From an uncultured Alphaproteobacteria bacterium (GTDB lineage: Bacteria; Bacteroidota; Ignavibacteria; OLB7), in assembly GCA_964462535.1 (NCBI GenBank), contig CAYWXV010000003.1, forward strand, positions 65,193 to 129,192: a stretch of 64,000 nucleotides of DNA, written 5' to 3'. The position numbers were made by a program, and so were the translations under genes. Below are positions 4,243 to 33,429 of this stretch, one piece after another (positions within the stretch are counted from its first letter, which is position 1; the number at the start of each line of letters is the position of its first letter). A model generated the notes under the pieces. It searched no databases and was not told the origin of the DNA. It worked only from the letters and a program-made list of their open reading frames with translations.

Positions 4243-4330
4243 ATAGCGTCTCCTACCGAGCCCGTCTCGCGGATGCGTCCCCACACGTGTTTCCACTGCA
4301 CGCCTTAACCCTACCATACACAACCACATC

Positions 4331-7224: not shown

Positions 7225-7231
7225 AGGGAGG
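7225..7231 (+). promoter_or_regulatory. Shine-Dalgarno-like AGGGAGG 8 nt upstream of the ATG at 7239
   Basis: Sequence tcttAGGGAGGcctaaccATG. Most other genes in the window lack such a strong SD. Confidence 0.5.
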
Positions 7232-7238
7232 CCTAACC

Positions 7239-11488: not shown

Positions 11489-11555
11489 TCGTCAGACCAA
11501 GAACGGCACCTGAGCAATTCGTCGCTGCAAACACCTTAACATCAATAGACTGACA

Positions 11556-12962: not shown

Positions 12963-13254
12963 GAGATTTCAGTCCAGTCAACGCCGGGCCGTTGCTCCGG
13001 ACTAACTGGTAGGGGGTGGGAGACGTTATCTTCTGGTAGCCCTCCCGCCCGGCTGAAACAAAACGCATTGCTTGTGGGTCTCTAGTTCGTCACCCCTGGT
13101 TCATCTCCGGCGTCGGTGAGCGGGCCGAGGGACCCATAACACTTTTCGACTACCCGAAGGTTCGCTGTTCGAGGGCCTTCATCCGTCGTGTCAGCCGAGT
13201 CCACGCTGGCGCGCATGATGACGGCGCGGTCCCCCGAGCAACGACCACGATCCT

Positions 13255-14613: not shown

Positions 14614-14618
14614 CTCGT

Positions 14619-16691: not shown

Positions 16692-16827
16692 GGCGCAAGT
16701 TAACCTCTTCAAACGGTAACACGCCCGTGAATGCCCGTTTGATCGGGTTGTCGGTCCCTACGTGATTAGTAACTTGGCCGGTCTTTCAGTACGCCTCCCC
16801 GGCTATTTGCTCCGAATCTCTCTGTTG

Positions 16828-17802: not shown

Positions 17803-17846
17803 TCTCACCCACTCGAAAGCACTTCAGTCGAACAATACGGTTAACC

Positions 17847-19004
17847 ATGTCCTATCTCTTCACTTCTGAATCTGTCAGCGAAGGCCATCCCGACAAGGTG
17901 TCGGACCAAATCTCAGATGCGATCCTCGACGCGATCCTTACCGACGACCCCTCAGCTCGAGTCGCGTGCGAGACATTCGTAACTACTGGATTGGTCGTGA
18001 TTGGCGGAGAGATTACCACGACAACGTACGTCGACTTCGCGGAGGTGGCACGCGAGACGATCCGGTCGATCGGCTATACGCAGCCAGAGCTTCGGTTCGA
18101 TTGCGATTCTTGCGGCGTGCTGAACGCCGTCCACTCACAGTCGCCTGACATTGCAAAGGGGGTTGATGTCGGTGGTGCCGGTGATCAGGGTATGATGTTT
18201 GGTTACGCCTCCGACGAGACGCCCGAGTACATGCCAATGCCGCTGATGTACGCGCATCGTCTGATGATGAATCTGGCGAAGGTCCGCAAGCAGCGAAACA
18301 CTCCCATGTCGTATCTCCGTCCGGACTCAAAGAGTCAGGTAACGATTCAGTACGATGAGAACGGAAAACCGCAGCGCGTTGACACCATCGTCGTGTCGAC
18401 CCAGCATGATCCACTCGGCGGGAAGAAGGCGATGCAGGGGCGAATCCTGGCCGACCTCCACGAATTCATTATTCCGAAGTCGATACCGTCCAGCATGATC
18501 GATGCGAAGACGCGCGTATTGGTGAACCCGACCGGCAGCTTTGAAATTGGCGGCCCCCATGGTGATACCGGGTTGACGGGCAGGAAGATCATCGTTGACA
18601 CATACGGCGGGCGTGCACCGCACGGTGGTGGCGCCTTCAGTGGCAAGGACCCGTCGAAGGTCGATCGCTCGGCTGCCTATGCCGCCAGGCACGTCGCGAA
18701 GAACATTGTTGCAGCCAAGCTGGCTCGGGAGTGTACCATTCAGGTTGCCTACGCAATAGGCGTCGCAGAGCCGGTTTCGCTCCGCGTCGATACCCACGGG
18801 ACCGGTATTATTCCGGACATCGAGATATCGCGACTTGTCAAGAAGAACGTTGATATGCGACCTGCAGGCATTATTGAGCGACTCCGACTTCGGCGCCCGG
18901 TCTACCGTGCCACCGCCGCGTACGGACACTTCGGTCGCAAAGGCGAATCGTTCACCTGGGAGAACCTCGACCTCGTCGACGTCTTCCAGAACGCTGTCCG
19001 TTGA
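17847..19004 (+). CDS. metK: S-adenosylmethionine synthetase
   Basis: [48 protein letters not shown]. 385 aa. Confidence 0.95.
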
Positions 19005-19015
19005 AAGGGGTCGCG

Positions 19016-19633
19016 ATGCGCGTCCTGAACGTCGGTTGCGGCATGGCGAAACTCGATTTCCAAGAGGCGCTGACGAGCACCCAGGTGATCGGCGTCGACC
19101 TGAGTAGACACTCGCAGGCCGACGTTATCCATGACCTCAACCAGATACCGTGGCCGTTCGAAACCGGCGCGTTCGATCTGGTGATCATGCAGGATATCAT
19201 TGAACACCTGATCGATGTCCCAGCCGCAATCAACGAGGTCTATCGCATACTCCGCCACGGTGGACGCGTTAGGATCCGAACGCCGCACTACTCCAGTTCG
19301 TACGCATACAACGATCCGACGCACGTTCACTTCTTTGGCACGATGGTGTTCGACGGTTTTACCGACGGGAACACGAATCGGACCTACAGCACGTCACGCT
19401 TCCGGATGCGAGTCCGGCGTATCATCTTTCCCAAGGTCTGGCGCATTACAGGTGTGGCCTGGCTTGCCAACAGATTCGTTCATCGGTGGGAGCAGCTCTT
19501 CGCATTCGTCTTCCGTGCGGAGAACCTCTATTTCGAGATGGAGGCGGTGAAGGAGGATGCATCAAGAGATTCACATCAGACAGACTCATGTATAGAAAGG
19601 AGAAGCAATGGATTTCAAGGAGGGACAGTATAA
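19016..19633 (+). CDS. class I SAM-dependent methyltransferase (Methyltransf_11-like)
   Basis: MRVLNVGCGM motif I, DLVIMQDIIEHL motif II region. ATG at 19016 (the track start at 19001 is TTG overlapping the metK stop). Confidence 0.7.
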   Translation: MRVLNVGCGMAKLDFQEALTSTQVIGVDLSRHSQADVIHDLNQIPWPFETGAFDLVIMQDIIEHLIDVPAAINEVYRILRHGGRVRIRTPHYSSSYAYNDPTHVHFFGTMVFDGFTDGNTNRTYSTSRFRMRVRRIIFPKVWRITGVAWLANRFVHRWEQLFAFVFRAENLYFEMEAVKEDASRDSHQTDSCIERRSNGFQGGTV

Positions 19634-20885
19634 AGTCCGTGACCTCTCACTTGCCGAAGAGGGACGCCTTCTTATCGAATGGGCCGAGAGCAGAATGCCG
19701 GTGCTGATGCACCTTCGCGAGAAGTACAGCCAGACGCAGCCGTTGAAGGGATATCGCATTGCCGGTTGCCTCCATGTCACAAAGGAGACGGCGGTGCTCA
19801 TCCGGACCTTGCTGGCCGCCGGAGCCGAGATCTCGTGGTCCGGCTGCAATCCTCTCTCGACAAACGATGCCGTTGCGGCGGCACTTGCCGCGGACGGCGT
19901 AAAGATCTACGCATGGCATGGATTGGGGACCGAGGACTTCTACTGGTGCATCGAGGAGACGCTCAAGATCAATCCGAACCTGACGCTCGACGACGGCGCG
20001 GATCTCATTTTCACCGTGCACAATAAGTTCCCCGAGCTGACCGCGTCGATGATCGGTGGCACCGAAGAGACAACCACCGGCGTCCACAGACTCCGCGCAA
20101 TGGCCTCCGACGGCGCATTGAAGTACCCGGTAATCGCTGTAAATGACGCCGAGACAAAGTGGGATTTCGATAACGTGTATGGCACGGGGCAGTCGACGCT
20201 TGACGGTGTGATCCGGGCTACGTCGGTCATGCTGGCAGGCAAGAACGTTGTCGTCGCCGGTTATGGTCACTGCGGAAAGGGAGTTGCGATGAGGGCGAAG
20301 GGAATGGGTGCAAACGTCATTGTGACGGAAGTGAAGCCGACTGCGGCTTTGAAAGCGACGTTGGAGGGGATGCGCGTGATGGAGATGGACGAGGCGGCGG
20401 GGGTTGGCGATCTCTTCATTACGGCCACCGGTGTTAAGGATGTCATCACACAGCGCCATTTCCAGAAGATGAAGGATGGAGCTATTGTATGCAACACCGG
20501 CCACTACGATTGCGAGATCAACATCGGTGACCTCGAGATGCTGAAGACCGACAAGCGTACGATTCGCACGAACAATGAGGAGTATGTCCTCGGCGATGGT
20601 CGGCGGATCTACCTTCTGGCGCAGGGTCGGCTTGTCAACCTGGCCGCCGCCGAGGGACATCCGTCCGAGGTGATGGACATGTCGTTCGCCAATCAGTTCA
20701 TGTCGCAGATCCGTCTTGCCGAAATGCATCGCTCGGGTCAGCCGTGGGAGAACGGTGTGTACGATATTCCCGCCGAACAGGATCAGGAGATCGCCTTCGT
20801 CAAGCTGCGCACCATGGGTATTGGGTTGGACGAGCTGACCCCCGAGCAGGTGGAGTACATGGACGACTATTCTGCCGGAACCTAG
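19608..20885 (+). CDS. ahcY: adenosylhomocysteinase
   Basis: Full-length match to the SAHH pattern: KGYRIAGCLHVTKETAVLI, NAD-binding VVAGYGHCGKG. AAGGAG SD upstream. 425 aa. Confidence 0.95.
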   Translation: MDFKEGQYKVRDLSLAEEGRLLIEWAESRMPVLMHLREKYSQTQPLKGYRIAGCLHVTKETAVLIRTLLAAGAEISWSGCNPLSTNDAVAAALAADGVKIYAWHGLGTEDFYWCIEETLKINPNLTLDDGADLIFTVHNKFPELTASMIGGTEETTTGVHRLRAMASDGALKYPVIAVNDAETKWDFDNVYGTGQSTLDGVIRATSVMLAGKNVVVAGYGHCGKGVAMRAKGMGANVIVTEVKPTAALKATLEGMRVMEMDEAAGVGDLFITATGVKDVITQRHFQKMKDGAIVCNTGHYDCEINIGDLEMLKTDKRTIRTNNEEYVLGDGRRIYLLAQGRLVNLAAAEGHPSEVMDMSFANQFMSQIRLAEMHRSGQPWENGVYDIPAEQDQEIAFVKLRTMGIGLDELTPEQVEYMDDYSAGT

Positions 20886-21003
20886 CGGTAGCCACACCAT
20901 CGGTCACGTTCCACAACAGGCTCGTCGTGATCGGCGGGCCTGTTGTATATCCAGACCGCCGCCGCCGTACGGGACTGTACGCACTTTCACCTATTTTCCG
21001 ACG

Positions 21004-22953
21004 ATGATTCATCGTCCCGCCCCACGCTTCTATTGCTTGCGTCCCATTCTCCTGCTGATGGTCCTGTCGGCGGGGGGTCTTCGTGCGCAACAGGGGGGCC
21101 CGCAGGAATCGCTACCGCTGCTCGGTCCAACCGTGCGATATGAGTTCGGCGTTCCAATCGCGGTTGACCGTCTCCCGGGACTGGTCAATCGATTCAATGT
21201 TCCTGGAACGGGCGAGTCTCGCAACCACACAATTGGCAGCGGTGCAACGCTCCTCTTTCCGCAACTCATTTCCCGTCGACTCGGGCTTCGCCTCCACGCG
21301 CTTCTAGGCGTTTCTTTCGGGCTCTTCGAGTCGGATCCGTACCTCGTTGATCTGTTGGACACCGCGAGCGGCGTCCTCCTCTCCACCGCCAACCGCTTCA
21401 ACGTATCGACGACGTTGGGAAGCGCTCAATTGGGAGCCGGGGTTGATCTCCGGCTGGCTGACGGACCCGCCTTCTTCGGAATCGGCCTCTGGGGGGAGAC
21501 CAGGTTCGCGTTGGAGATTGTGGAGCGTGAGGAGCTTCTCTTTCCGGACACTGCTCGTTTCCCGTCGGGTGAACGGACCCGCGTATTGACTGCTGGAGAG
21601 AGCCTGGGGGCGCAGGCTTTGAGAGGAGGTGGAGAGTTTCGTCTTGGTGCGCGTTTCGGTATCAATCCCGACCTGGCCATCGAGTCTTCGGTCCACACTC
21701 GCGTAGACGTCGCCTCGCTTGTGGATGGACTCGCGGCGCGAGCCTGGTCGGTGGGTGCCCAGTTGTCGTTCCTCATGCCGTTTGGGGTGCGAGGGGGGGA
21801 CGACGACCTCCTTGCGCGCCGCATCCCAGGCCTGCAGCTCGACTTGTACGCCATCGACGGCGACGCGGTCGCACAGATCGGCACCCTTCAGCCGGTGCGG
21901 GTCGTTCATCGCCGTGTTGTCCCTCTTATTCCCATCGTCTACTTCGGAACAGGTTCAACGACGATCCCCGATCGGTATCGATTGATCGACCGGGCCGCGG
22001 CGGACTCGTTCACAATGGCCGATCTCTCTGGTCTGGATCCACTTCAGCTCTCACGACGCTCTATTGACGTCATCGCCTGGAGAATGGGATTGGCGGATGA
22101 CGCGAAGTTGACGTTGGTGTCGTCTTCCGGCCGGGGAGACGAAATCGCACGGCGCCGCGCCGAGGTCCTCCGGAGCTACTTGATAGATGTCTGGGGAATC
22201 GCCTCTTCGCGTATCGCTGTTCGCACTGAGCGGATGCGTAGCGGGCCGGGGGAGGGCGTGGAGTTTCGCTGCTCAAATCAGTCGCTGGTGGCCGATCCTA
22301 TTGTCGTTGAGTGGGTGGAGCAGGCCTACCGTGCTCCAATCGTTGGAATGGACCGGATAATACCGCGCGAAGGGGGCCTTCGGCGATGGGAGATAGAATT
22401 GACACGCATGGGATCCAGAATAGCCTATTTCGAGGGCGAAGGCTTTTCGGATGGGCGCGAACTCTCAGGGCAACTTCTTCTCGATTCAATCCGTGGTGCC
22501 GACGAAGAGGAACCGATCGTTGGACATCTCTTTGTGGAGAACATGGCGGGCGTTCGCGATACTGCTCACGACATCCTCCCGCTGCGCACCCTTGACCTTG
22601 CGGTCGACTCGCTCGGAGGAACGATCGTCGACGGCGTGCTCGGCGTGGTTGCCGACGATCGGGGAAAGCTCACGTCTCCGACGACGGGCGCGGCGGCAGA
22701 ATTGATCGACGGGGTCGTTGACGGGTGCGAGGTACACGTCTGGATGGTGCGTTCGGATGCGGCTTCCGCTAGCGGAAGGGGAGGAGTTGACCTGCTGACA
22801 ACACTTCTCGGTCGGAATATTCAGCCGTCGAGTCTCCGATTTACGTCCCCTCTCCGCGATCGTTGGACGCCGGACAACAGCCCGGAATCCACGATCCTGT
22901 CGTCCGGTGTGTCATTTCGAATTTCCTCATCGAACACACGAGCTGCCCCATGA
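21004..22953 (+). CDS. OmpA-family protein: signal peptide, N-terminal beta-rich region, internal OmpA_C-like domain, ~250-aa C-terminal extension
   Basis: Signal peptide ILLLMVLSAGGLRAQQ. Internal PIVYFGTGSTTI...GRGDEIARRRAEVLRSYL...SSRIAV matches the OmpA_C pattern. Confidence 0.65.
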   Translation: MIHRPAPRFYCLRPILLLMVLSAGGLRAQQGGPQESLPLLGPTVRYEFGVPIAVDRLPGLVNRFNVPGTGESRNHTIGSGATLLFPQLISRRLGLRLHALLGVSFGLFESDPYLVDLLDTASGVLLSTANRFNVSTTLGSAQLGAGVDLRLADGPAFFGIGLWGETRFALEIVEREELLFPDTARFPSGERTRVLTAGESLGAQALRGGGEFRLGARFGINPDLAIESSVHTRVDVASLVDGLAARAWSVGAQLSFLMPFGVRGGDDDLLARRIPGLQLDLYAIDGDAVAQIGTLQPVRVVHRRVVPLIPIVYFGTGSTTIPDRYRLIDRAAADSFTMADLSGLDPLQLSRRSIDVIAWRMGLADDAKLTLVSSSGRGDEIARRRAEVLRSYLIDVWGIASSRIAVRTERMRSGPGEGVEFRCSNQSLVADPIVVEWVEQAYRAPIVGMDRIIPREGGLRRWEIELTRMGSRIAYFEGEGFSDGRELSGQLLLDSIRGADEEEPIVGHLFVENMAGVRDTAHDILPLRTLDLAVDSLGGTIVDGVLGVVADDRGKLTSPTTGAAAELIDGVVDGCEVHVWMVRSDAASASGRGGVDLLTTLLGRNIQPSSLRFTSPLRDRWTPDNSPESTILSSGVSFRISSSNTRAAP

Positions 22954-23729
22954 GGATGCCACGCGCTTCAATAGCTGTTCTGGCGATTCTCTTCGGGTGC
23001 AACGGAGCCAGTGAAGCTCCGGAGAATCGGACGAGGGAGGGAGACCTGGCTCCTTGCCACTATCGGTCCATTCTTCATCGAGGCGCATACTACGACGTAG
23101 TCACCGTCAATCTCGACTACGCACACGTGCGGCTCTACTGGCGGCGCGAGGATGGGAGCAGGATCGGGACCTTTCCCGCTCTCCGTGACCTACTTGCTGC
23201 ACGCGGAGAGACGTTGTTGGTGGCGACCAACGGAGGAATATTCTTGAAGGGATTTATACCCGCAGGTGTTCACATTGAACGGGGGAGAGAACGGGTTGCG
23301 GTCAACAAGGAAGAGGGTTGGGGAAATTTCTTTTTGAAGCCCAACGGCGTGTTCGCCATTACGAGCAAGGGTGCAATGGTGGTTTCGACGGGACAATTCG
23401 TCCAAATCGCGTCGCACGATTCCGTGTACGAGGCAACACAGTCTGGTCCAATGCTGCTTGAACATGGGATCGTCCATCCCATTTTTGAGGACTCGAGCTA
23501 TCACTACAACGTCCGAAGCGGCGTCGCCGCCCCAACGCCGAATCAGGTTATCCTCGTGATCTCGCGGACAGAAGTGACACTCTACGATTTCGCAACGTTG
23601 TTTCGCGATGAATTGAAATGCAATGATGCGCTCTATCTGGACGGTGACATTACGCGTATGTACGCGCCGGCGCTGGGGCGGCGCGATACCGGTTCTTGTG
23701 CGGGGATCATCGGTGTCGTTGCGCGCTGA
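22950..23729 (+). CDS. DUF2233 / phosphodiester glycosidase family lipoprotein
   Basis: ATG overlaps the preceding stop (ATGA at 22950-22953). Lipoprotein signal ILFGC. VATNGGIF matches the (A/T)NGGFF signature of the family. Confidence 0.55.
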   Translation: MRMPRASIAVLAILFGCNGASEAPENRTREGDLAPCHYRSILHRGAYYDVVTVNLDYAHVRLYWRREDGSRIGTFPALRDLLAARGETLLVATNGGIFLKGFIPAGVHIERGRERVAVNKEEGWGNFFLKPNGVFAITSKGAMVVSTGQFVQIASHDSVYEATQSGPMLLEHGIVHPIFEDSSYHYNVRSGVAAPTPNQVILVISRTEVTLYDFATLFRDELKCNDALYLDGDITRMYAPALGRRDTGSCAGIIGVVAR

Positions 23730-23959
23730 GGAATCATCAGGCACGTGTCTCAACGCAAGCGCTTGCCGTGCCGTGTCAGGAAGCGTAGCATAGGTGAGAT
23801 GTCACGGTGTACCAGGATCCAGCAACGGACCAAAAGGCGATCGATGTTGCGACCGTCGCGCCACCGTAGGTGAGCGTAGCCACCACCCGGGAAGCCGAGC
23901 GACATATCACCTGCGACGGATCTTGGACGACGCGAAGAGCTAGTCAATCAGTGTCCACC

Positions 23960-26173
23960 TCAGTGGACGACGACAACAGACGTAGTGCGAACGTGCGATC
24001 CTGCGTGCATTCGCAGCCGATACACCCCGCTTGGAAGATCTTGAATATCAAGCGCCAGATTATGCTCACCCGCATCGAGATTCTCATCTAGTATGAGGTT
24101 GACAAGGCGTCCCGCTTCGTCGAGAATCTCAATTACGATGTGTTCGGGATGGGTCAGGGTACACGTGACGTGACCGAGTGTTGCAGTCGGGGTCGGACGA
24201 ACGGAGCCGAGCGAGAACTCCATATCATCGTGAGATGGGACTCCCGCCGCCGGAACAACGATTGCCGACCATACAGAAGTGTCGCGACGGCATTCTGCGT
24301 TGGACCAGAATTTGGCGGTCGATCTGAACACCCCTTGACTTGTGGGTGTGAATGTCACGAACAACGTGAAGCATTCCTGCGGGGCCAGGCGCACTACGTC
24401 GCGAAGACTATCAATTGTCGACTGCGGAACAGTGAAGTTTGTCACCAGCCATTCAATCACGGAGCCCCCGTTGGGATTGTTGAACGTAACGGTGTCGCCA
24501 CCTGGGATGCCTGCGTTGCAGATATCGAGTGGAAGCGTACGTGGACCGTCAACACCCAAACGGAATACACCGAAATTCAAGTCATCCACGTAAACGCATG
24601 GTTGCGTAGCGACGCCAGTCACCACTAACGACGCCACATCGCAGTCGGTCACTACCTTGAGCGTATCGAAGTAGCGCTCGGCGGGTGGGCGTGAACAAAA
24701 ACCGATGTGGACGATCACACTTTCCCCACTGTCCAGAACAACGGGTGTAGGCCCGGGCTCAATACTCTTGATTGTAAATCCCTGATCTCCCCGCATCAGC
24801 ATTGCGCTGGTTACATTGATTGGGCGGGAGCTATTGTTCGTGAAGGTCACGAGGGTATCAACGCAGGAGTCTTTCCTTACCCTCCCGGCATCGAGAATCC
24901 CGGTCACGTTTGGCGAGAGGACTGGGGGGATGTACCCGAACGGAAGCCGCCACTCCGCCCCCGTGCGATCCATGATGACGAGTTGCGCCGAGGCATTCAT
25001 CAGTGGATCGACGGGCTGGCACCGAACGATAGCGAACGTCGCTCCGACCAGGTCCGCTGGCTTCGTTGGATTGACAAAGACCAGCTTTGCGTTATTGATA
25101 GTCGACGTATCCAGCGAAATGCTGAGTAGTCCGGCAGGGTTGGTCGATACGTCCTTGACAGTATAGGTCGTTGACTCACAAACGCTCGTGTCGGTGATGA
25201 TCAACGTGTCGGCAATTTGAAGCACGGAACCCAGTATTCCCGTGATCCGATGCGAGTCCCACGACGGGGTATGAACGAATGTGTTGCCGTGCTGTTCGCT
25301 CGGCGCGCGTTGTTCGACTGCAAGATTCCGAATCCCGTTTCCTGCGAGATCGCTCGTCTCTCGGTCATATCCCATTGATGTTCGCGCGACGCCACATACC
25401 ACCCCGATAAGTCTGTCCATCCTTCTTCGCGTCCCGGTCAGATCGGGTTGTCTCGCCGAGAATCTTTCACAGGTGTCGACGTACCTCTGCGGCAGATAGC
25501 ATTGTCCCTTCTGACGTCTAGCCGCCAGAGCAGGCAAGTCCCACCACTGAGTCGTCTGTAACTGATGGATTGTGACGTTGGTGTTGTCGTATGAGGCAGC
25601 CATCAGGAGGTCGGATGGGCCCATCTTCCGGACACCAAACGATTCTGTCGGGGAGCCGAGACTAACGTTTCTCGGTGTTTCACCAGGCTGGGCAGGTACG
25701 ATATAGTCCTTCCCCAACGTGGCGGCGGGAATCTCCGCAACGAACTCGCCCCCTGACTCTGTCGCATAGTAGCGATTGCCGATCGCTGGGTAGGTGGCAC
25801 TGATGTCAAACGTAGCGTTGTTGATTCTAGCGATATCTGTCACAATCGGACGAGCGGCTGTGTTGTCCCGCGAGGTCAGCCCCACTATTTCTGAGCCTTC
25901 TGTTCGCGGTCGTACACGATTGATGCAGCCGGCCGGGCTAGTAATGTTGCCTTCATAATCAACCGCGGCGGAGGTCCGCAGTTGAACCCTACTCTTCATC
26001 AGAGTGCGAAACCTGCTTTCACATACGCTAGACGTCGTATCCGGAAAACCCACAACGAGATGTGTTCCGGCAATAATCGCGTCCAGTGCTTGTGCGTTCA
26101 AGCCATAACCCCAACACCCCATCAGTATGGACGCGAAAAGGGTTCTCATTGCGTAAAGCGTCGTCAGTTTCAT
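23960..26173 (-). CDS. secreted protein with C-terminal T9SS type-A sorting domain (T9SS cargo), paralogue A
   Basis: ATG at 26173 gives MKLTTLYAMRTLFASILMGCWGYGLNAQA. The track start at 26404 is an upstream extension. C-terminal ~75 aa (...ILDEAGRLVNLILDENLDAGEHNLALDIQDLPSGVYRLRMHAG...VVVVH) fit the T9SS CTD pattern. The N-terminal region is similar to the two downstream genes. Confidence 0.75.
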   Translation of the reverse strand: MKLTTLYAMRTLFASILMGCWGYGLNAQALDAIIAGTHLVVGFPDTTSSVCESRFRTLMKSRVQLRTSAAVDYEGNITSPAGCINRVRPRTEGSEIVGLTSRDNTAARPIVTDIARINNATFDISATYPAIGNRYYATESGGEFVAEIPAATLGKDYIVPAQPGETPRNVSLGSPTESFGVRKMGPSDLLMAASYDNTNVTIHQLQTTQWWDLPALAARRQKGQCYLPQRYVDTCERFSARQPDLTGTRRRMDRLIGVVCGVARTSMGYDRETSDLAGNGIRNLAVEQRAPSEQHGNTFVHTPSWDSHRITGILGSVLQIADTLIITDTSVCESTTYTVKDVSTNPAGLLSISLDTSTINNAKLVFVNPTKPADLVGATFAIVRCQPVDPLMNASAQLVIMDRTGAEWRLPFGYIPPVLSPNVTGILDAGRVRKDSCVDTLVTFTNNSSRPINVTSAMLMRGDQGFTIKSIEPGPTPVVLDSGESVIVHIGFCSRPPAERYFDTLKVVTDCDVASLVVTGVATQPCVYVDDLNFGVFRLGVDGPRTLPLDICNAGIPGGDTVTFNNPNGGSVIEWLVTNFTVPQSTIDSLRDVVRLAPQECFTLFVTFTPTSQGVFRSTAKFWSNAECRRDTSVWSAIVVPAAGVPSHDDMEFSLGSVRPTPTATLGHVTCTLTHPEHIVIEILDEAGRLVNLILDENLDAGEHNLALDIQDLPSGVYRLRMHAGSHVRTTSVVVVH

Positions 26174-26431
26174 GATTGATCTCCCAACATTCGTGGATGC
26201 ACATCGAATGCAAATACTCGAAGCCAGTGGATAGTTATGTGATATGCCGCAAAATGGTCCGGGAGCGAGGGACGCATCAATCCCATGCCATCGCGTGGAT
26301 GCAGTGACGACGACATCGTAGGTCTTGCGCGATGACCTCGTAACGCCAATGATGTCGCGCGTCAGCGTGCAGGGGCCGAGTATTAGTAGCGCCGAAGCAA
26401 TCAATAATCGGCGAACGCGCGGACCATTACA

Positions 26432-28948
26432 CTATTCGTGCACCACGACCAGGGTGTTGGTTGCCTGGAACAATCCAGATTGCAGCCTCACTAAATAGAG
26501 TCCCTTCGGAACGGTGGAGACGTCAATTCTGACTTCGTGCTCCCCCTCGCCCACGACAGTGTCCACCATCGTCCGAACTACGTTCCCACGAATATCGAAC
26601 ATCCGCATGGTGGTGTGAGCGCGTCGCGGAATTGTGTAGTTGATGCTCACCGTCGATCTCGATGGCGTTGGAGCAACTGGCCCGAGACGCCCGCCATAGG
26701 AGTTAGCGATATCGGCCGCGGATACCCTGGACGATCTACCTGTCACGTATCGGGTCGGGTTACCGCAATGGTCGCCGCCAATAACGAGCGTGTCCCATCC
26801 CTCCCAATCAGCGCTCGGAGGGACAACCCGAACGATTATGTTCGTTGAGTCGTGAGGTGGAATTATGAGGGGCATGTTCGACGGGAATAGCAGCCGAAAG
26901 CCCTTTGACGAATTCGTTAGGTGGGCGGACCACACTCGCAGTGAATCGTCGTTGTCGTTGAACAATGGAATCTCAAAATCCCGGGAGCTACCATACGGAA
27001 CCACCCCAAAGTCTATGTGCATGGCACTTGGCAGCCTGGCATAGTTCGATCCCCGGTACAACGGTATTGCCGTCTTATGACCGGTGCGATCCTCAATTAT
27101 TACCGTTCCAGTTGCGGGGCGATCCGGATCGACGAGGGCGAACAGGAACGACATTCCCACGCGACCCTCTGCATCGACTGTTTCCTCGCGAAGCGTTGTA
27201 ATGGCGGCGTTGGAGCTTCCGTCCGCTAGAACGAGCGATCGAATTCCTGAGGGGCTGGAGTTGACAAACGTGACGTCGATGTCAATTCCTCTGCATTCAA
27301 ACGTCTGACGAATAGCGATCGAGTCTGGAGGTTGCAGTGCGAGGCGACGCGGGGCCAGAGCGAGTCCGTATGACCGACCAAGCATCTCTTCGTACTCGAC
27401 TGTTCCGAGCAGTTCGGTGCCTTCCTTCCGACGCGTCGTGAAGCCCGGTCGATACAGCTCGAATCCTGCCTCCAGGCCGTATTGCGTAGCGTAGAACCTG
27501 GCGCCACCTCGTCCCTCGATCCACATTGTCCGACCGACCGGAACTGGGAACGAACCCCAAACGAGGTCGGTTCCAGGAACTGAGCCCCTATTGAAGTCGA
27601 CGAGCTGTCCAGTCTCATCAAATATCGTTCTCGCCGAAACCGAGTCGGCGACGATATTCACGTAGTGTCCTACGCCCGTCAAAGACGTAGGGGCGTAGAT
27701 CGGGGCAAATGAGGTCCATTGCTCTCGTGGGACCATTTCCACAGAGAACCCACCATACGTCCTGTACGATTCGCCGTGATACAATGTGCCCGTCGTCCTC
27801 CCCAGTTCCTCTATGACGGGGGCGGGATAGACAAATGCCTGTGCAGGCCGATTCGATCGATAGAGGTGCGGGCGCGCGATGCGCCACCGTGACGTATCGG
27901 TCCTTCCTGTTGGAACTACGCGTCGCACTGCGCTCGCTCCGCTGTCGAGCACATCAAGCGAAGTGGGGGTGTAACCCGACGGGACGAACAGAATTCGCTC
28001 CCAAGCTCTCTTCCCTACACTGGAATCACCCGGGTTACCGATTTGAGCAAGCGTATCAGAAACTGGGAGATGGACGAATGATGTGCCATGCATATCCACG
28101 GGTGTGAGCCATTCGAACGCGCTGTTCTTCAGCGTATTCCCTGCGTTTGCGGATACCTCGCGTTCCAGACCGAACGCGCCTCGAGGATTCCCGGCTATAA
28201 CACCAATTGGCCCATCGGATATTATCTCGGTTAGGGTAGGATCGCCGTTGTCCCAGTAGGTGGTATTGCTCGCGGTGTCCAGCACTGCCCTCAGCGTAAT
28301 CGCCTGCCCCGGGAGCATGGTTATGGGCATTTCCGGTTGGTCTACGAGGCTGACACCCGGGCGGGGGAGAACAGTGACATGTGTGGGCGTTGGCGTTCCG
28401 CACACGATAGTTAGCTGCGCATTCGCTGCCAACGCACGGGCATGGAAGATTGTGTCTTCCACGGGGTACTCGATATTCCGGACAACCTCGCCAGGCAAGG
28501 ACGCCACCACGTACTTCCTGCCGAACGCTCCTGCCGCGAGGGGCGTGAACGCCTCTGTGCCGAATCGCGTGGTGTAGAAACAGGTAACCAGAAACGGACG
28601 CGTACCTCGAATCGATGCAACAGTAAACTGAGGGGTGGAAGTGGACGTGACAATTTCAATATCAAGTTCCCGCGCGACACGTGGTTGCAATCGTATGTGG
28701 CGAGTGGTTGAGGGACCTGTGACCGATACCTCTTGTTCGACGTCCGAAAACACCACGATCGTTGCCGTCTCCGTTCTGCGGACGGAAAACCGAGGGTCTG
28801 TGTCGTTTCCGACTGTGTCTGGAAATGCGACGAAATAGAGCGTCCCTGACGAACCTGGATCAATCGTCTGGGCCTCTGTTCCCGAAAGCGAAAAAAGAGT
28901 GAGGACGAGCGCAGCAGTGAAAGGGTGATGAAGTCGGTAACGGATCAT
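26432..28948 (-). CDS. secreted protein with C-terminal T9SS type-A sorting domain, paralogue B
   Basis: ATG at 28948 gives MIRYRLHHPFTAALVLTLFSLSGTEAQ. CTD ...MFDIRGNVVRTMVDTVVGEGEHEVRIDVSTVPKGLYLVRLQSG...LVVVHE. Shares GTLYFVAFPDT and TSRWR.ARPHLY..N.PAQAF blocks with paralogue C. Confidence 0.75.
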   Translation of the reverse strand: MIRYRLHHPFTAALVLTLFSLSGTEAQTIDPGSSGTLYFVAFPDTVGNDTDPRFSVRRTETATIVVFSDVEQEVSVTGPSTTRHIRLQPRVARELDIEIVTSTSTPQFTVASIRGTRPFLVTCFYTTRFGTEAFTPLAAGAFGRKYVVASLPGEVVRNIEYPVEDTIFHARALAANAQLTIVCGTPTPTHVTVLPRPGVSLVDQPEMPITMLPGQAITLRAVLDTASNTTYWDNGDPTLTEIISDGPIGVIAGNPRGAFGLEREVSANAGNTLKNSAFEWLTPVDMHGTSFVHLPVSDTLAQIGNPGDSSVGKRAWERILFVPSGYTPTSLDVLDSGASAVRRVVPTGRTDTSRWRIARPHLYRSNRPAQAFVYPAPVIEELGRTTGTLYHGESYRTYGGFSVEMVPREQWTSFAPIYAPTSLTGVGHYVNIVADSVSARTIFDETGQLVDFNRGSVPGTDLVWGSFPVPVGRTMWIEGRGGARFYATQYGLEAGFELYRPGFTTRRKEGTELLGTVEYEEMLGRSYGLALAPRRLALQPPDSIAIRQTFECRGIDIDVTFVNSSPSGIRSLVLADGSSNAAITTLREETVDAEGRVGMSFLFALVDPDRPATGTVIIEDRTGHKTAIPLYRGSNYARLPSAMHIDFGVVPYGSSRDFEIPLFNDNDDSLRVWSAHLTNSSKGFRLLFPSNMPLIIPPHDSTNIIVRVVPPSADWEGWDTLVIGGDHCGNPTRYVTGRSSRVSAADIANSYGGRLGPVAPTPSRSTVSINYTIPRRAHTTMRMFDIRGNVVRTMVDTVVGEGEHEVRIDVSTVPKGLYLVRLQSGLFQATNTLVVVHE

Positions 28949-29362
28949 GTGTTGAACGGGGGAATGGGTAGCAGTTGCCGTTGCTGCGCCAGGTGTGAGG
29001 AACGCAACCGATTGCGCAAACATCGGGCCAAAGCGAGCTGCATGGTATTTATTCGATTAATTGCACCGAGTGAATGTGTCGTGTGGGGGTTCTGCACGGT
29101 TGGGTAGTGAATGTCACGATTATTTCCCGCCGTTTGACGAAGCGCGGACCTGTGTCATATCCACGACGTCGACTCCCACGTTTGGAGAACCGATGTCATT
29201 CGAAATCTCGCCTCTGAACACAATGACAGTGGCCAGGGCGAGAAGGATCGGTTGACACCGTGTCAACTGTTTGAACGATGGATGTTTGTACCTAGGTCAG
29301 GTGATGTTATACGTGACGCCCGCCGTTTGCCCCCACGCAAGTTCGCCCCGTCCACTCCCATG

Positions 29363-32332
29363 TCATCGCGCAACCACGACAGCCACAAACGACACCCACG
29401 CCCCGCACCGCACGCGGGCATAGTAGGTACCGTCTGCCGCGTTTGCGAGCGATGTCGTTGCTTGATGTCGACCTTCCGTCAATTCGGCATCGAGTAGCGT
29501 GGAGAGGAGGCGACCCGTCGCGTCGATGACGTCTACCACGACGTGCCCCGGTCGACCAATGCTGAATGGGATCGTCACGGCACCGGTTGTGGGGGTTGGT
29601 CGCGGGGTCTCCAGAACATATCCAGCCGCGGCCCACTCGTGAACATTGACAGGCGCCTGCACGGTGACGCTCCAAATGGAACTGTCGCGATGGCAATCGG
29701 CGTCCGTCTGCGCAAACGCGATTGTCGTGAATGTACCCGGTCTCAGAACGTGTACCGTCACGGGAATCCGGTAGCACCCACCCGCTTCGATTACTCGCCC
29801 CACGAGTGAGTCGCGCCAGCTTGGAAGAACCGTGAACATGTTTTCGCGGTCGTCAAATCGAAAGACCCAGGCCGAATCCGCGCTGGTGAAGTGGAGTGGG
29901 GCGGCCCCATCGTTGCATATCGATAACATCAGCGTTCGCACTGCACCGGAGTCTCCGGGCCATCTGAATGTGCCGAAATCAAGATCGTCCATGTGGATAC
30001 ATGGTACCAAGGATGATCCCACAACGATTGTCCTGATACGCGTTCCAGCGACCAGGACTTCGAGTGAGTCGACGTAGCGACTGTTTTCTGACGTGGGGGA
30101 GAATCGGATGAAGAATGTGACGGAATCGTTTGGCGCGACAGCAATTGGAAAATTCGATGGACCCACGAAGTCGAACCCGGAGTTACCGCTTCCGGGCTTT
30201 CCCCAGCTGGCGTGCGATGAATCACCGTCCCGCGTCCATCCACCAACTTTCCCCCCTAGAATGATCGTTGGCACGGAGTTGGGATTGAAGAAGGAAATCC
30301 TGTAGTCACGAACAGTCCCCGGCGACAACGCTCCCACGTCGACGGTATCCCCATGTCCCAATCGTATCAAGAGCGGATTGATGCGAAACGAGGCGGACGT
30401 TCCGGTGCCAGAGCGGTCCCGAGCGACAACCATTCCGGATGCTGGAACGGTTGCGTCCACTTGCGCGATGTCCGCGGTGGCGTCGGTTTCGCCTCCGTGG
30501 ATGCCCCCCGGTGGATTCGTAACGACGATCGTTGCGTTGGTGGTCGTTCCGGCATCCAGGAAGAGCGAAGAGAGTCCACTTGGATTGGGACCCACAAACG
30601 ACACATGCGCACGAACGACGTTACGATCCTCAGATGTTCCCAAGAGGTTTGTCAGCACAAGGCTCATTGAATCGGGTTCGAGCAGGGAGCGGCGTCGTGG
30701 TGCAAGCGGAAGCCCGTATGCGACGGCAGTTACCTCTTCGTACTCGGACGGATGGAGCAGCTCTGACGAGCCCCCCTCTTTTCGTGCCGATCCTGGCCTC
30801 CACATCTCATAGCCGCCACGCCACAATCCGTATTGAACGGCAGTGAATCGCGCCCCGTTTCTCCCTTCCAGCCAGTAGACAACCCCGGTGTCAAGCGGGA
30901 ACACCCCCCACACGAGATCCGTTCCCGGAATTGTCCCCTGATTGAAATCGACTTCTTCTCCTGCCTTAGTGAAGATTGAATGACGAGATGCCGTGTCGGT
31001 CGCAAAGGCAACGAAATGCTGTGCGTTCAACGGAATTCTCGGAGCAAACATCGGCGCGAACGACGTCCACTGCTCACGTGGTGTCAATTCCTGCATGAAA
31101 CCGCCAGCGGAGTACCAGCGTGATCCGAACTCGAACCCGGGGCTCCCCGCGATCCCAATGTATGTCAAGACCGGGGCAGGGAGCTGGAACGCCTGCGCAG
31201 GTTTGTCCGATGTGTACACATGCGGGCGTGGCCGGCCCCAGCGACTTGTGTCCGTTGCACCATAAGCCAACGGCGCTATTGGAATCTCGGTGCCATTTTC
31301 AACGGCCGAAACCGTGGTAGTGCCCGGAGTTGTTGCGGTCAAGAGGATGCGCTCGTACTGTCTCTTGTCGGAAGTGATCTCACCCGAAGCACCCGTAATT
31401 CTGGATGTGTCCATCAAAGGGAGATGTACGAAGTACGTACCATGCTGGTCCGTCGGCGCCAGCCATTCGTACGCCGCATTTCGAATGGAATTCTTGGCAA
31501 GACCACCAACCTCCCGATCATATCCGCATGCCGTTCGCGGGCTACCGGAGACGACGCCGATCGGCTTAGATGACACGATTCTCGTCCCGCTGATGTCCAT
31601 TTGCGGTCGCCCAGCATTCTGGGTGGTCGTGTCCACAAATCCGCGAATGGTGTAGCACTCTCCCTTGTTCAACGTGATTCCGAGAGGGGCGTCGCCCACC
31701 AGAAAAACTCCCGTTGGCGGTGTTATTGATATCTGCGTGCTGTCGTACGCCGCAATTACGCATGCGACCGGCGATGCGGCTTTGTTCGAAACGCGGTAGT
31801 CACTCTCGCCCCCTGGGGACATGTCAGCAACCAACTGACCCGGGGCCGCAGCAACGAAGTATTCTGTTCCCCATCTGGCGACTGGAATTGGCGTATATGC
31901 CTCGCCGCCAAATCGTGTCGCGAAATGGCAATAGAGAATAATGGGCTCATCGGCCTCCAGCATGAACGTTGCCATTGACGGATTGGCAAATGCAGGCTGG
32001 AATGTGGGCGACGCGGGGTTGGATTTGTCGTTGAGATTAACCGTCCGTATGCCTCCAGCGGGTACCTGCACTGCTGCATTGTATCCATTGGGGGAGGTGA
32101 TCCTAACGTTGTTGCTCACCGCTGAATAGAAGACGAGAGTAACTGCCTCCTCCATGCGATTCGGAAATCTGGAATCGAATGTATTCTTGATCGTGTCTGG
32201 ATAGGCGATGATGTAGTATCGACCGGCGGTCTCTGGATCCAGCGACTGCGTACGTGTTTGGGCGGGGAAGAGAAGTAGAGCAGCAACGCAGCCGAGAGCG
32301 AACAACGAATGACGGTGAAATGAACGATCCAT
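29363..32332 (-). CDS. secreted protein with C-terminal T9SS type-A sorting domain, paralogue C (989 aa)
   Basis: Signal peptide ALGCVAALLLFPAQTRTQ. CTD ...VVDVIDATGRLLSTLLDAELTEGRHQATTSLANAADGTYYARVR...VVVAR. The N-terminal GRYYIIAYPDT block matches its paralogues. Confidence 0.75.
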   Translation of the reverse strand: MDRSFHRHSLFALGCVAALLLFPAQTRTQSLDPETAGRYYIIAYPDTIKNTFDSRFPNRMEEAVTLVFYSAVSNNVRITSPNGYNAAVQVPAGGIRTVNLNDKSNPASPTFQPAFANPSMATFMLEADEPIILYCHFATRFGGEAYTPIPVARWGTEYFVAAAPGQLVADMSPGGESDYRVSNKAASPVACVIAAYDSTQISITPPTGVFLVGDAPLGITLNKGECYTIRGFVDTTTQNAGRPQMDISGTRIVSSKPIGVVSGSPRTACGYDREVGGLAKNSIRNAAYEWLAPTDQHGTYFVHLPLMDTSRITGASGEITSDKRQYERILLTATTPGTTTVSAVENGTEIPIAPLAYGATDTSRWGRPRPHVYTSDKPAQAFQLPAPVLTYIGIAGSPGFEFGSRWYSAGGFMQELTPREQWTSFAPMFAPRIPLNAQHFVAFATDTASRHSIFTKAGEEVDFNQGTIPGTDLVWGVFPLDTGVVYWLEGRNGARFTAVQYGLWRGGYEMWRPGSARKEGGSSELLHPSEYEEVTAVAYGLPLAPRRRSLLEPDSMSLVLTNLLGTSEDRNVVRAHVSFVGPNPSGLSSLFLDAGTTTNATIVVTNPPGGIHGGETDATADIAQVDATVPASGMVVARDRSGTGTSASFRINPLLIRLGHGDTVDVGALSPGTVRDYRISFFNPNSVPTIILGGKVGGWTRDGDSSHASWGKPGSGNSGFDFVGPSNFPIAVAPNDSVTFFIRFSPTSENSRYVDSLEVLVAGTRIRTIVVGSSLVPCIHMDDLDFGTFRWPGDSGAVRTLMLSICNDGAAPLHFTSADSAWVFRFDDRENMFTVLPSWRDSLVGRVIEAGGCYRIPVTVHVLRPGTFTTIAFAQTDADCHRDSSIWSVTVQAPVNVHEWAAAGYVLETPRPTPTTGAVTIPFSIGRPGHVVVDVIDATGRLLSTLLDAELTEGRHQATTSLANAADGTYYARVRCGAWVSFVAVVVAR

Positions 32333-32450
32333 GGAAAAGCTCCCCTGCCAAGTGAACTGAATAGACGGGCTCCGAGGTGATTATCGGCTGGACGGAAAAG
32401 ATAGTCGGTGCGTGTCTATCGTGCTAGACCGAACGACGACGCTGCACAAG

Positions 32451-33083
32451 CTAGGCCGACGGATCGCCCGCAGCCGCCTGCCGTCGCTTGATGACCCGGC
32501 GAAGTATCAGGAAGACCGCCAGACTGACGAGCAGAACGGTAACGACCTGACCGTAACGCCCGAGAATATCGGCACCTCGTTCCCAGTTCTTTCCAAGAAA
32601 CGATCCGAGCAGAATGATGGCTCCGTTCCACGCGAGAGCGCTTATGCCACAGAGGATCGTGGTTCTTCCGATCCCGAGTCTTGACATGCCGGCGAAGAAG
32701 CTAATGACGGCGCGTGTTCCCGCCAGGAATCGATTTGCCACAATTACCCAGTATCCCCAACGATCGAACCAGTTGTCGACCTTTTCAACGGACGCGGCCG
32801 TAAGGAACGGCACCTTCCCCGATTCCAGAAGTCGTCGCCCGTATCGCCGCCCGATCCAGAAAGCCGTGAGAAATCCGGTCAGACTACCGAACGTCGCAAT
32901 CGCGACCGCCGGCACCAGATCAATCGTCCCGATACCGATCAGCGTGGCGATGAAGAGCATCACCACGTCGCTTGGTGATGGAGGAAACAGATTCTCGATG
33001 TAGCACGAGAACCAGAGCGTCAGATAGACACCCCAGGGGGGGAGGTGATTCAGCCAGGCTATTATCTCTGAGATCGTCGGCAT
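32451..33083 (-). CDS. DedA / SNARE-associated (TVP38/TMEM64) family membrane protein
   Basis: ATG at 33083. LTLWFSCYIENLFPPSPSDVVMLFIATLIG matches the DedA core. Multiple TM segments. Confidence 0.75.
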   Translation of the reverse strand: MPTISEIIAWLNHLPPWGVYLTLWFSCYIENLFPPSPSDVVMLFIATLIGIGTIDLVPAVAIATFGSLTGFLTAFWIGRRYGRRLLESGKVPFLTAASVEKVDNWFDRWGYWVIVANRFLAGTRAVISFFAGMSRLGIGRTTILCGISALAWNGAIILLGSFLGKNWERGADILGRYGQVVTVLLVSLAVFLILRRVIKRRQAAAGDPSA

Positions 33084-33201
33084 CGACTGTTGCGATGGAA
33101 GGAGAGAGTGTGTCAGGGCTGGCAAATACGAGAACGCCCGGCTCGCATGGTAGCGAAGCCGGGCGTCCTGTGCAATCCTTGCCTGGTGCTGATGCGGAGT
33201 G

Positions 33202-33429
33202 CTAGCTCTTTGCTGCCAGCTCAGCCATCATTGCTTTATACCCCTTCTTGTCAAGGGTCTTGAAGGCTTTGGCGGTAGCCTTGACCTTTACGAATCTCTT
33301 CTCGTCCTCAAGCCAGATCCGCTTCGTCTGCAGATTAGGCATGAAGCGGCGGTTTGTCACGTTGTGGGCATGCGAGATGTTCCGACCGTAGGTCGGTCCA
33401 AGCCCCGTCAGTTCACAGCGTCGTGCCAT
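33202..33429 (-). CDS. rpmB: 50S ribosomal protein L28
   Basis: [39 protein letters not shown]. 75 aa. Confidence 0.9.

Follow-up and report, generated by a model that had tools for sequence, protein, structure and literature searches.

Three adjacent genes, designated A, B, and C, lie in tandem in the window (the whole stretch of DNA analyzed, 64,000 nucleotides, or 64 kb). With a probability that we put at roughly 65%, their products belong to a family of exported surface proteins that has expanded in Kapabacteria and combines T9SS export, a head-on-stalk architecture, and old paralogy. Most likely, they serve as T9SS-exported surface proteins in which an Ig-like stalk carries a conserved head that binds a ligand. 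The family itself is already known, and A, B, and C are further members of it. Kapabacteria, which are uncultured, form a lineage close to Chlorobiota and Ignavibacteria; GyrA is 79 to 84% identical to the proteins of Kapabacteria/Kapaibacterium MAGs.

The three tandem minus-strand open reading frames (ORFs) described in an earlier sequence-only reading of this DNA are all present, and the limits of the array are exactly positions 23960 and 32332 (Table 1). For C, the length of 737 residues is also found in two public gene calls (P0035 and P0165). From the N terminus, A consists of a signal peptide, an FCGBP_N head, three Ig-like domains, and a C-terminal sorting domain (CTD). B has a signal peptide, a complete FCGBP_N head, two Ig-like domains, and a type-A CTD, and C has a signal peptide, an eroded half head, three Ig-like domains, and a CTD. 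The signal peptides were read by eye and their cleavage site was inferred. In the model of A, a helix (residues 4 to 21) is followed by a low-pLDDT segment (residues 21 to 28), and the A/G-Q-x-[LI]-D junction after the signal peptide is common to A, B, C, and their homologues. Elsewhere in the window, three unannotated ORFs (positions 7239 to 12962) match nothing. Promoter and terminator scans gave signals no higher than the shuffled expectation.

Table 1. Genes A, B, and C and the parts of their products, in window coordinates
Feature	Positions	Strand	Description
Gene A	29363..32332	minus	ORF, 989 aa
A signal peptide	32249..32332	minus	Residues ~1-28, followed by Q-S-L-D; read from sequence
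A head	30698..32245	minus	Residues ~30-545; predicted compact all-beta FCGBP_N-type unit
A stalk	29657..30667	minus	Residues ~556-892; three Ig-like beta-sandwich domains of the ASH/hydin and choice-of-anchor-D type
A CTD	29366..29620	minus	Residues ~905-989; T9SS type-A-like, under curated threshold
Gene B	26432..28948	minus	ORF, 838 aa from MIRYR; longest ORF, 863 aa
B C-terminal sorting domain	26435..26686	minus	Residues ~755-838; above T9SS type-A cut-offs
Gene C	23960..26173	minus	ORF, 737 aa from MKLTT; longest ORF, 814 aa
C head	25229..26092	minus	Residues ~28-315; truncated and degenerate
C CTD	23963..24211	minus	Residues ~655-737; T9SS type-A-like, under curated threshold

The head starts straight after the hydrophobic signal sequence in all three proteins. 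The sequence-only reading had likened this region to the IgGFc-binding N-terminal domain, and that guess proves correct: the PF17517 profile (IgGFc_binding/FCGBP_N; 297 positions, gathering threshold of 25.6 bits) matches A with 76.7 bits, B with 40.3 bits, and C with 26.6 bits. The matches are complete in A (residues 148 to 502, profile positions 5 to 297, E value of 2.5e-21) and in B (residues 140 to 491, profile positions 9 to 297). In C, the match is incomplete, covering only profile positions 7 to 133 of the 297, and its score is only just above the gathering threshold. The structural unit comprises ~520 residues and reaches ~110 residues further toward the N terminus than the Pfam model envelope, taking in the conserved PDT block described below.

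The AlphaFold model of the head of A alone is all-beta, with a pLDDT of 91.9 and a pTM of 0.91 (the full-length model of A has a pLDDT of 85). As modeled, the head forms a compact all-beta unit for which there is no solved structural relative. PDB sequence and profile searches detect no sequence relative of the head, and Foldseek searches of the PDB yield no whole-domain match (TM of ≤0.13). They return a single local match of 125 columns, to TM1070 (1nc7; TMt of 0.57), the rest being noise; the only match in a viral library is a phaeovirus protein. The suggestion that these proteins might form a beta-helix does not agree with the model, in which the strands are irregular, some of them 15 to 17 residues long, and no beta-helix match exceeds a TM of 0.13. 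Beta-helix proteins come up as noise only (TM of 0.09), and none of them is among the PDB matches.

Within the family, conservation is highest in the head, with a mean pairwise identity of 40%, compared to 34% for the CTD and 29% for the stalk. A retains 62 of the 65 family-conserved columns and B retains 52, the range in the family being 36 to 65. C retains 25 of these columns, has substitutions in 17, and lacks the other 23 through deletion. The invariant charged residues of the head (D246, E289, D308, R324, E327, R419, E420, D446, and E533) would fit an enzyme and a binding site equally well.

The stalk is related to the Ig-like domains of hydin. The family profile retrieves hydin ASH domains from the PDB (E value of 2.9e-26, profile positions 651 to 844), and Foldseek searches with the full-length model of A are swamped by the Ig arrays of hydin and CFAP proteins. 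The choice_anch_D model (NF012200) matches 26 of 34 family members, with a best E value of 1.4e-26; A and C score 14.0 and 15.1 bits against a cut-off of 45, and B has no match. As the relatives match this model and A, B, and C remain below its cut-off, their stalk appears to be a divergent version of the same domain. At the profile level, then, the stalk domains are like those of hydin/CFAP65-type ASH arrays and choice-of-anchor D proteins, but here they form a stalk under a different head.

All three proteins had been credited with clear type-A sorting domains. This holds for B, which scores 29.7 bits against TIGR04183 (cut-off of 23 bits) and 34.3 bits against PF18962 (cut-off of 27 bits), but not for A (18.2 bits, E value of 0.0019, and 16.9 bits, respectively) or C (19.7 bits, E value of 6e-4, and 24.2 bits), both of which are sub-threshold. 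The CTDs of A and C are nevertheless similar to that of B (28% identity over 76 aa, E value of 1e-8, and 31% over 83 aa, E value of 6e-12), and TIGR04183 matches 25 of 34 family members at an E value of ≤0.01 (best E value, 1.9e-9). TIGR04131, the model for CHU_C, the type-B sorting domain, has no match in A, B, or C at an E value of ≤1. In the model of A, the CTD contains six DSSP strands (residues 918 to 987) that reach the last residues of the protein and is directly preceded by a low-pLDDT linker (residues 894 to 903); B and C align with A throughout this region.

This organization is that of T9SS type-A cargos, such as the gingipains of Porphyromonas gingivalis and secreted proteins of Flavobacterium: a Sec signal, a functional domain in the N-terminal part, Ig-like spacers before the sorting domain, and a C-terminal beta-sandwich of ~80 residues after a flexible linker. 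It differs from them in that two of the three CTDs are below the curated cut-offs. A, B, and C are probably exported. The window proteins scanned include no T9SS machinery gene product (SprA, PorV, PorU, or GldKLMN).

The claim that A, B, and C are paralogues is borne out far beyond chance. A and B are alignable over essentially their whole length (35% identity over 760 aa, E value of 4e-140), so that the description of everything outside two shared blocks as diverged was too strong. A and C align in two segments (33% identity over 351 aa, E value of 4e-44, and 29% over 419 aa, E value of 3e-39), and B and C share 27% identity over 288 aa in addition to the stalk and CTD. The alignments extend well outside the CTD, and the paralogy is therefore not limited to that domain. 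As to the two blocks, the N-terminal one, G-x-x-[YL]-x-[VI]-[AG]-[FY]-P-D-T (residues 37 to 47 of A), is indeed found in all three proteins. The central one, TSRW..RPH.Y.S..PAQAF (residues 361 to 383 of A), is present in A and B but missing from C, which has a gap of ~240 residues there.

The family includes 117 unique members, 75 of which are encoded in same-strand tandem runs of 2 to 7 genes. The 63 related loci are all from MAGs of Kapaibacteria or of the Chlorobiota type, of which a few are assigned to other phyla. With ~160 representatives at an E value of ≤1e-30 among 1.84 billion, the head subfamily is a small one. Members of the family combine the head with an Ig stalk of 0, 2 to 3, or ~7 domains and a type-A sorting domain; a 630-aa relative such as P0024 consists of the head and the sorting domain only. 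Conserved functional neighbors of the arrays were also sought, but the recurrent flanking genes are housekeeping ones (SpoIID-like, FolP, Alr, ManC, E1 dehydrogenase, and PPDK) and reflect only orthologous synteny.

The history of the locus bears on whether the array arose by recent local triplication and is now diverging under positive selection, like variable adhesin or surface-layer arrays, which is close to what the sequence-only reading had proposed. The three genes stand side by side on one strand with a common architecture, and lineage-specific tandem duplicates do occur in other genomes (e.g., the pairs at L045, L020, L011, and L056). A crude neighbor-joining tree also unites A, B, and C, on long branches; this grouping is at odds with the order of the BLAST matches of C, and long-branch attraction is a possible cause. 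Synteny speaks against a recent triplication. The orthologues of A, P0002 (70% identity) and P0003 (48%), occupy the same place, between a DedA gene and ahcY, and the syntenic loci of the two relatives (L064 and L066) contain a single family gene, with no B gene at the corresponding position. Even the closest relative, whose AhcY is 95% identical and whose A orthologue is 70% identical, lacks both B and C in the stretch from the A orthologue to the NAGPA gene. The best relatives of B are P0003 (38.6%), A (35.4%), and P0008 (34.9%; 851 aa, a similar length). The 35% identity between A and B is far below that between A and its orthologues, which places the A/B split before the speciations, unless B has evolved far faster. 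C is most similar to P0005 and P0006 (46%, versus ~31% to A), which belong to a subfamily of ~1,460-aa proteins. It aligns with P0005 in two segments, one of 295 aa with 43% identity and one of 334 aa with 49%, and has no counterparts of P0005 residues ~325 to 560 and ~890 to 1375. Judging from these alignments, C descends from the long subfamily by truncation.

Nor is there support for the diversifying selection that had been suggested, since the head, the distal part of the protein, is the most conserved region and synonymous sites are saturated. This is so even between A and its closest (70%) orthologue (pS of 0.75), and the housekeeping neighbors are saturated as well (pS of 0.64 to 0.70); dN/dS between the paralogues is therefore not measurable, no signal of positive selection can be extracted, and the value of ~0.05 for A versus the 70% orthologue is a rough estimate. 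No DNA-level repeats link the three genes. Taken with the single-copy relatives and the affinity of C to another subfamily, these data do not bear out a locally diversifying array, and a recent triplication is very unlikely. Tandem multicopy surface protein genes are also the usual substrate of phase or antigenic variation, in which cassettes are shuffled by recombination. This explanation is effectively refuted: positions 23500 to 33300 contain no long direct or inverted repeats (the longest repeat spans 32 nt with 72% identity), there is no recombinase or invertase gene nearby, and copies that share 27 to 35% protein identity are too far apart for homologous recombination. The lack of T9SS genes in the window, the sub-threshold CTDs of A and C, the invariant charged residues of the head, and the neighbor-joining tree speak against the favored reading of an old, exported family with a binding head.

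Two further alternatives concern function. C, and perhaps B, might be a decaying, functionless pseudogene, so that only A matters at this locus. C has lost ~240 residues of the head, 17 of its 42 alignable conserved positions, and ~485 residues of the stalk relative to its nearest relatives, and no other full-length member with a half head turned up when the GTDB loci were searched independently of reading frame. Against this, C is an uninterrupted 2.2-kb ORF in a genome of 57% G+C, retains its signal peptide, CTD, and stalk (49% identity to P0005), and recurs as an intact 737-aa gene in an independent assembly (L067), where it is 99% identical. The 7 changes between the two copies can be read either way: 4 are nonsynonymous, all in the head (codons 56 to 69), and 3 are synonymous, all in the stalk, whereas ahcY, the sugar nucleotidyltransferase gene, and nadE show only synonymous changes between the strains. 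This distribution suggests a constrained stalk, although 7 changes are too few for a decision. B, with its 52 conserved positions, is within the family range. Decay is a somewhat unlikely explanation.

Alternatively, the head could be an uncharacterized secreted enzyme that acts, for example, on a polysaccharide or other polymer, with the array encoding isoenzymes. Many T9SS type-A cargos are hydrolases, the NCBIfam models of T9SS-dependent M6 and M36 proteins match the CTDs in part, and the most conserved part of these proteins, the head, has invariant acidic, basic, and aromatic residues at ~30 to 40% identity, including the SGNTR, PREQW, and EYEE motifs. However, the head has no enzyme match in Pfam or NCBIfam at an E value of ≤1, no PDB sequence match, and no Foldseek match to an enzyme fold with a TM above 0.13, and its relatives in eukaryotes are proteins of mucus and the extracellular matrix rather than enzymes (PMC4948705). 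An enzymatic head appears improbable. Similarly doubtful is the broader proposal that the ~520-aa head represents a new ligand-binding or catalytic module, e.g., for extracellular polysaccharide or slime.

Under the favored reading, that of a conserved binding head on an exported stalk, the mechanism can be pieced together from the established T9SS pathway and the architecture described here. The proteins would be exported by Sec and cut by signal peptidase I before the conserved Gln, and the CTD would guide the protein, once folded, to the type IX translocon. After removal of the CTD within the flexible linker, the protein would either be tethered to the outer membrane through its new C terminus or be released. 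With the anchor at the C-terminal end, the Ig stalk would hold the N-terminal head outward from the cell, where it might bind a ligand common to the whole family, probably a polymer or a surface component. An adhesin or surface-layer role, as first suggested from the sequence, is plausible. Of the three genes, A would be the ancestral, syntenic one, and B and C would be old paralogues from other family branches that are present at this locus only in this lineage. C would be an eroded copy in which half of the head and most of the conserved head residues are gone but an intact ORF, the stalk, the signal peptide, and the CTD are retained.

In bacterial FCGBP_N proteins described previously, this domain is at the N terminus, often combined with CHU_C, PKD, or SprB domains; the authors consider these proteins likely to be secreted, and they can be multicopy, as in Labilithrix luteola, which has 103 (Lang et al. 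2016; PMC4948705). Like the FCGBP_N proteins of Bacteroidota and Myxococcota, A, B, and C have the domain after the signal peptide, Ig-like or PKD-type repeats, a T9SS sorting domain, and multiple copies. They differ in that the place of the CHU_C, PKD, and SprB partners is taken by ASH/hydin and choice-of-anchor-D Ig domains and a type-A CTD, and Kapabacteria are absent from the main FCGBP_N-carrying bacterial groups listed in that work (PMC4948705). The literature offers no experimental studies of bacterial FCGBP_N proteins; the sole detection is that of one protein in the vesicle proteome of Tannerella forsythia. The N1 domain of human FCGBP, the IgG Fc-binding protein of mucus, is homologous to the head of A (PF17517) and is likewise N-terminal in an extracellular protein, but where A has an Ig stalk and a sorting domain, the human protein carries 13 vWD-C8-TIL units. 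The binding of IgG by human FCGBP was not reproducible, and mouse FCGBP has no N1 domain (PMC11796319); a host-IgG role is not expected for the proteins of an environmental bacterium.

These observations add Kapabacteria to the bacteria with expanded sets of FCGBP_N surface proteins and define a compact, readable architecture that consists of a head, an Ig stalk, and a type-A sorting domain. They also indicate that adjacent paralogues with 30 to 35% identity do not necessarily form a locally diversifying array. A, or the 630-aa relative with only the head and the sorting domain, is small, models well, and would be convenient for structural and binding studies. Should the head turn out to be a new module, its activity in bacteria would reveal the role of the N1 domain of human FCGBP, and C, with its half head, would be a natural deletion variant that marks a dispensable subdomain.

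The products of the neighboring genes A, B, and C belong to the FCGBP_N family. The PF17517 (IgGFc_binding) profile matches their N-terminal heads with 76.7, 40.3, and 26.6 bits, respectively, all above the gathering threshold of 25.6 bits, so the guess made in the sequence-only reading was right. A and B contain the full-length domain; the match in C spans only positions 7 to 133 of the 297-position profile. As proposed, the three proteins are paralogous beyond their C-terminal sorting domains (CTDs). Pairwise alignments show 35% identity between A and B over 760 aa (E = 4e-140), 33% over 351 aa (E = 4e-44) and 29% over 419 aa (E = 3e-39) between A and C, and 27% over 288 aa (E = 3e-21) between B and C, with a further 26% over 219 aa (E = 1e-8) in the B-C stalk. 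Aligned separately, the A and B CTDs share 28% identity over 76 aa (E = 1e-8); the B and C CTDs share 31% over 83 aa (E = 6e-12). The N-terminal block G-x-x-Y/L-x-V/I-A/G-F/Y-P-D-T is common to all three proteins, but the central block TSRW..RPH.Y.S..PAQAF, also thought to be shared, is present only in A and B and falls in a gap of ~240 aa in C.

The description of all three CTDs as clear type-A domains of type IX secretion (T9SS) holds for B, which scores 29.7 bits with TIGR04183 and 34.3 bits with PF18962 (curated cutoffs, 23 and 27 bits); A (18.2 and 16.9 bits) and C (19.7 and 24.2 bits) are below both cutoffs. Despite these scores, the CTDs of A and C are homologous to that of B. TIGR04183 matches 25 of 34 family members at E = 0.01 or better, and no type-B (TIGR04131) signal is seen in A, B, or C. 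The stalk between head and CTD consists of Ig-like domains of the ASH/hydin kind, three each in A and C and two in B; the family profile matches hydin with E = 2.9e-26, and choice-of-anchor D is matched in 26 of 34 relatives. Family members fall into length classes of ~630 to 660 aa (head and sorting domain only), ~840 to 990 aa, and ~1,450 to 1,520 aa. Like their relatives, A, B, and C open with a hydrophobic signal sequence ending in A/G-Q-x-L/I-D. Bacteroidota habitually expose an N-terminal Gln after cleavage by signal peptidase I, and this junction would fit such processing.

Direct support exists for the order of the domains, for homology to FCGBP_N and to the type-A sorting domains of T9SS, and for a flexible linker before the tail; we infer the mechanism from the established T9SS pathway. 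The Sec system would take the protein out, the type IX translocon would recognize the CTD, and the CTD would be cut off in the linker, leaving the protein anchored via its new C terminus or released. Given such export, cleavage, and anchoring, the conserved head would face outward on its Ig stalk, and differing stalk lengths (0, 2 to 3, or ~7 Ig domains) would hold the heads closer to or farther from the surface.

The model of the A head alone (residues 30 to 560; pLDDT, 91.9; pTM, 0.91) is compact and essentially all-β, with several strands of 15 to 17 residues, and is not the suggested β-helix. The full-length model of A (pLDDT, 85; pTM, 0.67) has low-confidence segments at residues 21 to 28, 701 to 715, and 894 to 903, the last being the linker directly before the sorting domain. 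No sequence relative of the head was found in the PDB, and Foldseek finds no whole-domain PDB match for the A head (TM, 0.13 or less); its sole confident PDB match is local (125 columns), to the uncharacterized TM1070. In the viral library, Foldseek gives one real match (E = 3.7e-9; TM, 0.38), the uncharacterized phaeovirus protein FirrV-1-C4 of Feldmannia irregularis virus a, which is the only confident nonbacterial structural neighbor of the head in the libraries searched. This predicted similarity suggests that a brown-alga virus may encode an FCGBP_N-like protein. The invariant polar residues of the head point to a single conserved class of ligand, or a single activity, and not to a range of specificities. 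Between an enzyme and a binding module, we favor the latter, because the eukaryotic relatives are extracellular-matrix and mucus proteins and no enzyme folds are matched; an enzymatic head appears less likely.

Housekeeping genes surround the array (see the table), its G+C content is unremarkable, and promoter-like and terminator-like matches show no excess over shuffled expectation. The intergenic gaps are 414 and 258 bp. The window GyrA is 79 to 84% identical to Kapabacteria/Kapaibacterium MAG proteins versus 67 to 68% for Ignavibacteria, so the window comes from an uncultured member of Kapabacteria. This GyrA has no intein; several close relatives (74 to 93% identical; 1,010 to 1,269 aa) contain intein domains (PF14890, mostly plus LAGLIDADG PF14528).

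Coordinates of the genes and sites discussed (window positions unless a contig is named)
Feature	Position	Strand	Length	Remarks
Gene A	29363-32332	-	989 aa	
A head (modeled)	30653-32245	-		
Gene B	26432-28948	-	838 aa	From MIRYR; extendable to 863 aa, the start used by one public annotation (P0014)
Gene C	23960-26173	-	737 aa	From MKLTT; same length in two public gene calls (P0035, P0165)
Clustered differences in C	25969-26007		39 bp	All 4 nonsynonymous differences of C from L067
DedA/VTT gene		-		Directly upstream of the array; followed by Sua5, M28 peptidase, NAGPA-like glycosidase, ahcY, metK, nadE, gyrA, polA, uvrD
Signal peptide protein	21004-22953	+	649 aa	No Pfam/NCBIfam match; final third OmpA-like by eye; adjoins the family locus in every syntenic relative (L064, L066, L067)
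ORF trio, first	7239-9194	+	651 aa	No Pfam/NCBIfam match
ORF trio, second	9470-11488	+	672 aa	No Pfam/NCBIfam match; 26% identical to third over 250 aa
ORF trio, third	11556-12962	+	468 aa	No Pfam/NCBIfam match
VWA-OmpA protein	13255-14613	+		After the consecutive ORF trio; with the BatA-like protein, typical Bacteroidota-type aerotolerance (Bat) components
BatA-like/VWA protein	55213-57369	+		
GyrA	41394-43862	+	822 aa	
Frameshift in A orthologue	L066, ~3380-3420			Splits the gene into 700 aa and 277 aa
Largest array observed	L021 (JAFDZV010000033.1), 3956-22848			Uninterrupted run of seven family genes on one strand of a single MAG

Two relatives (contigs L064/L065 and L066) have the same neighborhood with one family gene, in the order DedA, family gene, ~650-aa gene, ahcY. 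These single genes, P0003 and P0002, are 48% and 70% identical to A, respectively; in L066, the NAGPA gene comes directly after. As the syntenic relatives hold only A's counterpart, A is the ancestral occupant, and B and C are additions in the window's lineage. The window and L066 share 95% identity in AhcY, against only 35% between A and B, so a postspeciation duplication of A would require implausible acceleration in B. The frameshift in L066 lies at A residues ~706 to 713, within the low-confidence loop, and reflects an assembly error or, alternatively, incipient pseudogenization.

C is nearest to P0005 and P0006 (46% identity; 1,461 to 1,465 aa) and only ~31% identical to A. Compared with P0005, it lacks residues ~325 to 560, the second half of the head, and ~890 to 1375, which hold extra Ig domains. 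Conservation reaches at least 85% across 100 relatives in 65 columns of the head; of these, A retains 62, B 52, and C 25 (17 substituted, 23 deleted; family range, 36 to 65). The same C gene, also 737 aa, in an independent assembly (99.79% identical over 10.9 kb) indicates that the deletion is real and the ORF maintained. C derives from another subfamily and has eroded. A quick neighbor-joining tree places A, B, and C together on long branches; we regard it as unreliable, since it disagrees with the pairwise ranking of C and omits P0002, P0003, P0005, and P0006.

We find no support for the proposed array that diversifies locally under positive selection. Across the family, conservation is highest in the head (mean pairwise identity, 40%, versus 34% for the sorting domain and 29% for the stalk), the opposite of the pattern expected for a diversifying adhesin tip. 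The suggested dN/dS between paralogues allows no estimate, since synonymous sites are saturated: pS is 0.64 to 0.70 in housekeeping neighbors and 0.75 between A and its 70% orthologue, where the nominal dN/dS is ~0.05. The dN of A in that comparison is 0.22, ~7 times that of AhcY, with a similar 0.18 in the neighboring 649-aa protein. Between strains (window versus L067), C has 4 nonsynonymous differences, all in head codons 56 to 69, and 3 synonymous ones, all in the stalk; ahcY, the sugar nucleotidyltransferase gene, and nadE have synonymous changes only. This hints at relaxed constraint on the C head, in numbers too small to decide. The 39-bp cluster of the nonsynonymous differences may mark a short recombination tract or reflect relaxed constraint; the remaining 19 window-L067 differences, 15 of them synonymous, are scattered over 10.9 kb. 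The array shows neither DNA repeats nor recombinase genes that would suggest cassette switching.

A single-sequence head query against 1.84 billion cluster representatives finds 639 proteins at E = 1e-3 or better, 160 of them at 1e-30 or better. With one genome taken per species, a pattern scan yields 63 loci, several per genome in many genomes; every one comes from a Kapaibacteria or Chlorobiota-type MAG, with a few of these filed under other phyla. When every ORF in these loci is searched with a profile, 117 unique members emerge, 75 of them in runs of 2 to 7 copies on one strand, so tandem arrangement is the rule in this family and not peculiar to the window. One further locus (L011) has five consecutive family genes. 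Recurrent flanking genes reflect orthologous housekeeping synteny only, and their comparison revealed no dedicated partner gene.

A, B, and C are of the same kind as the published bacterial FCGBP_N proteins but differ in host lineage (Kapabacteria), in stalk type (ASH/choice-of-anchor D), and in having a type-A sorting domain instead of CHU_C, which we take to be the type-B domain. Lang et al. defined FCGBP_N in 2016 and reported it from 564 proteins of bacteria, the majority belonging to Flavobacteria, Cytophaga, and Sphingobacteria, where it is almost always N-terminal and combined with PKD, CHU_C, or SprB domains; large expansions occur (e.g., 103 copies in Labilithrix luteola), and a link to gliding motility was speculated (PMC4948705). 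One FCGBP_N protein was seen in the Tannerella forsythia vesicle proteome (PMC10682907), and IgG binding by human FCGBP was not reproducible (PMC11796319). The original observation on A, B, and C is largely real and their family assignment correct; the uncharacterized FCGBP_N head, a domain without a solved structural relative, is its main value.
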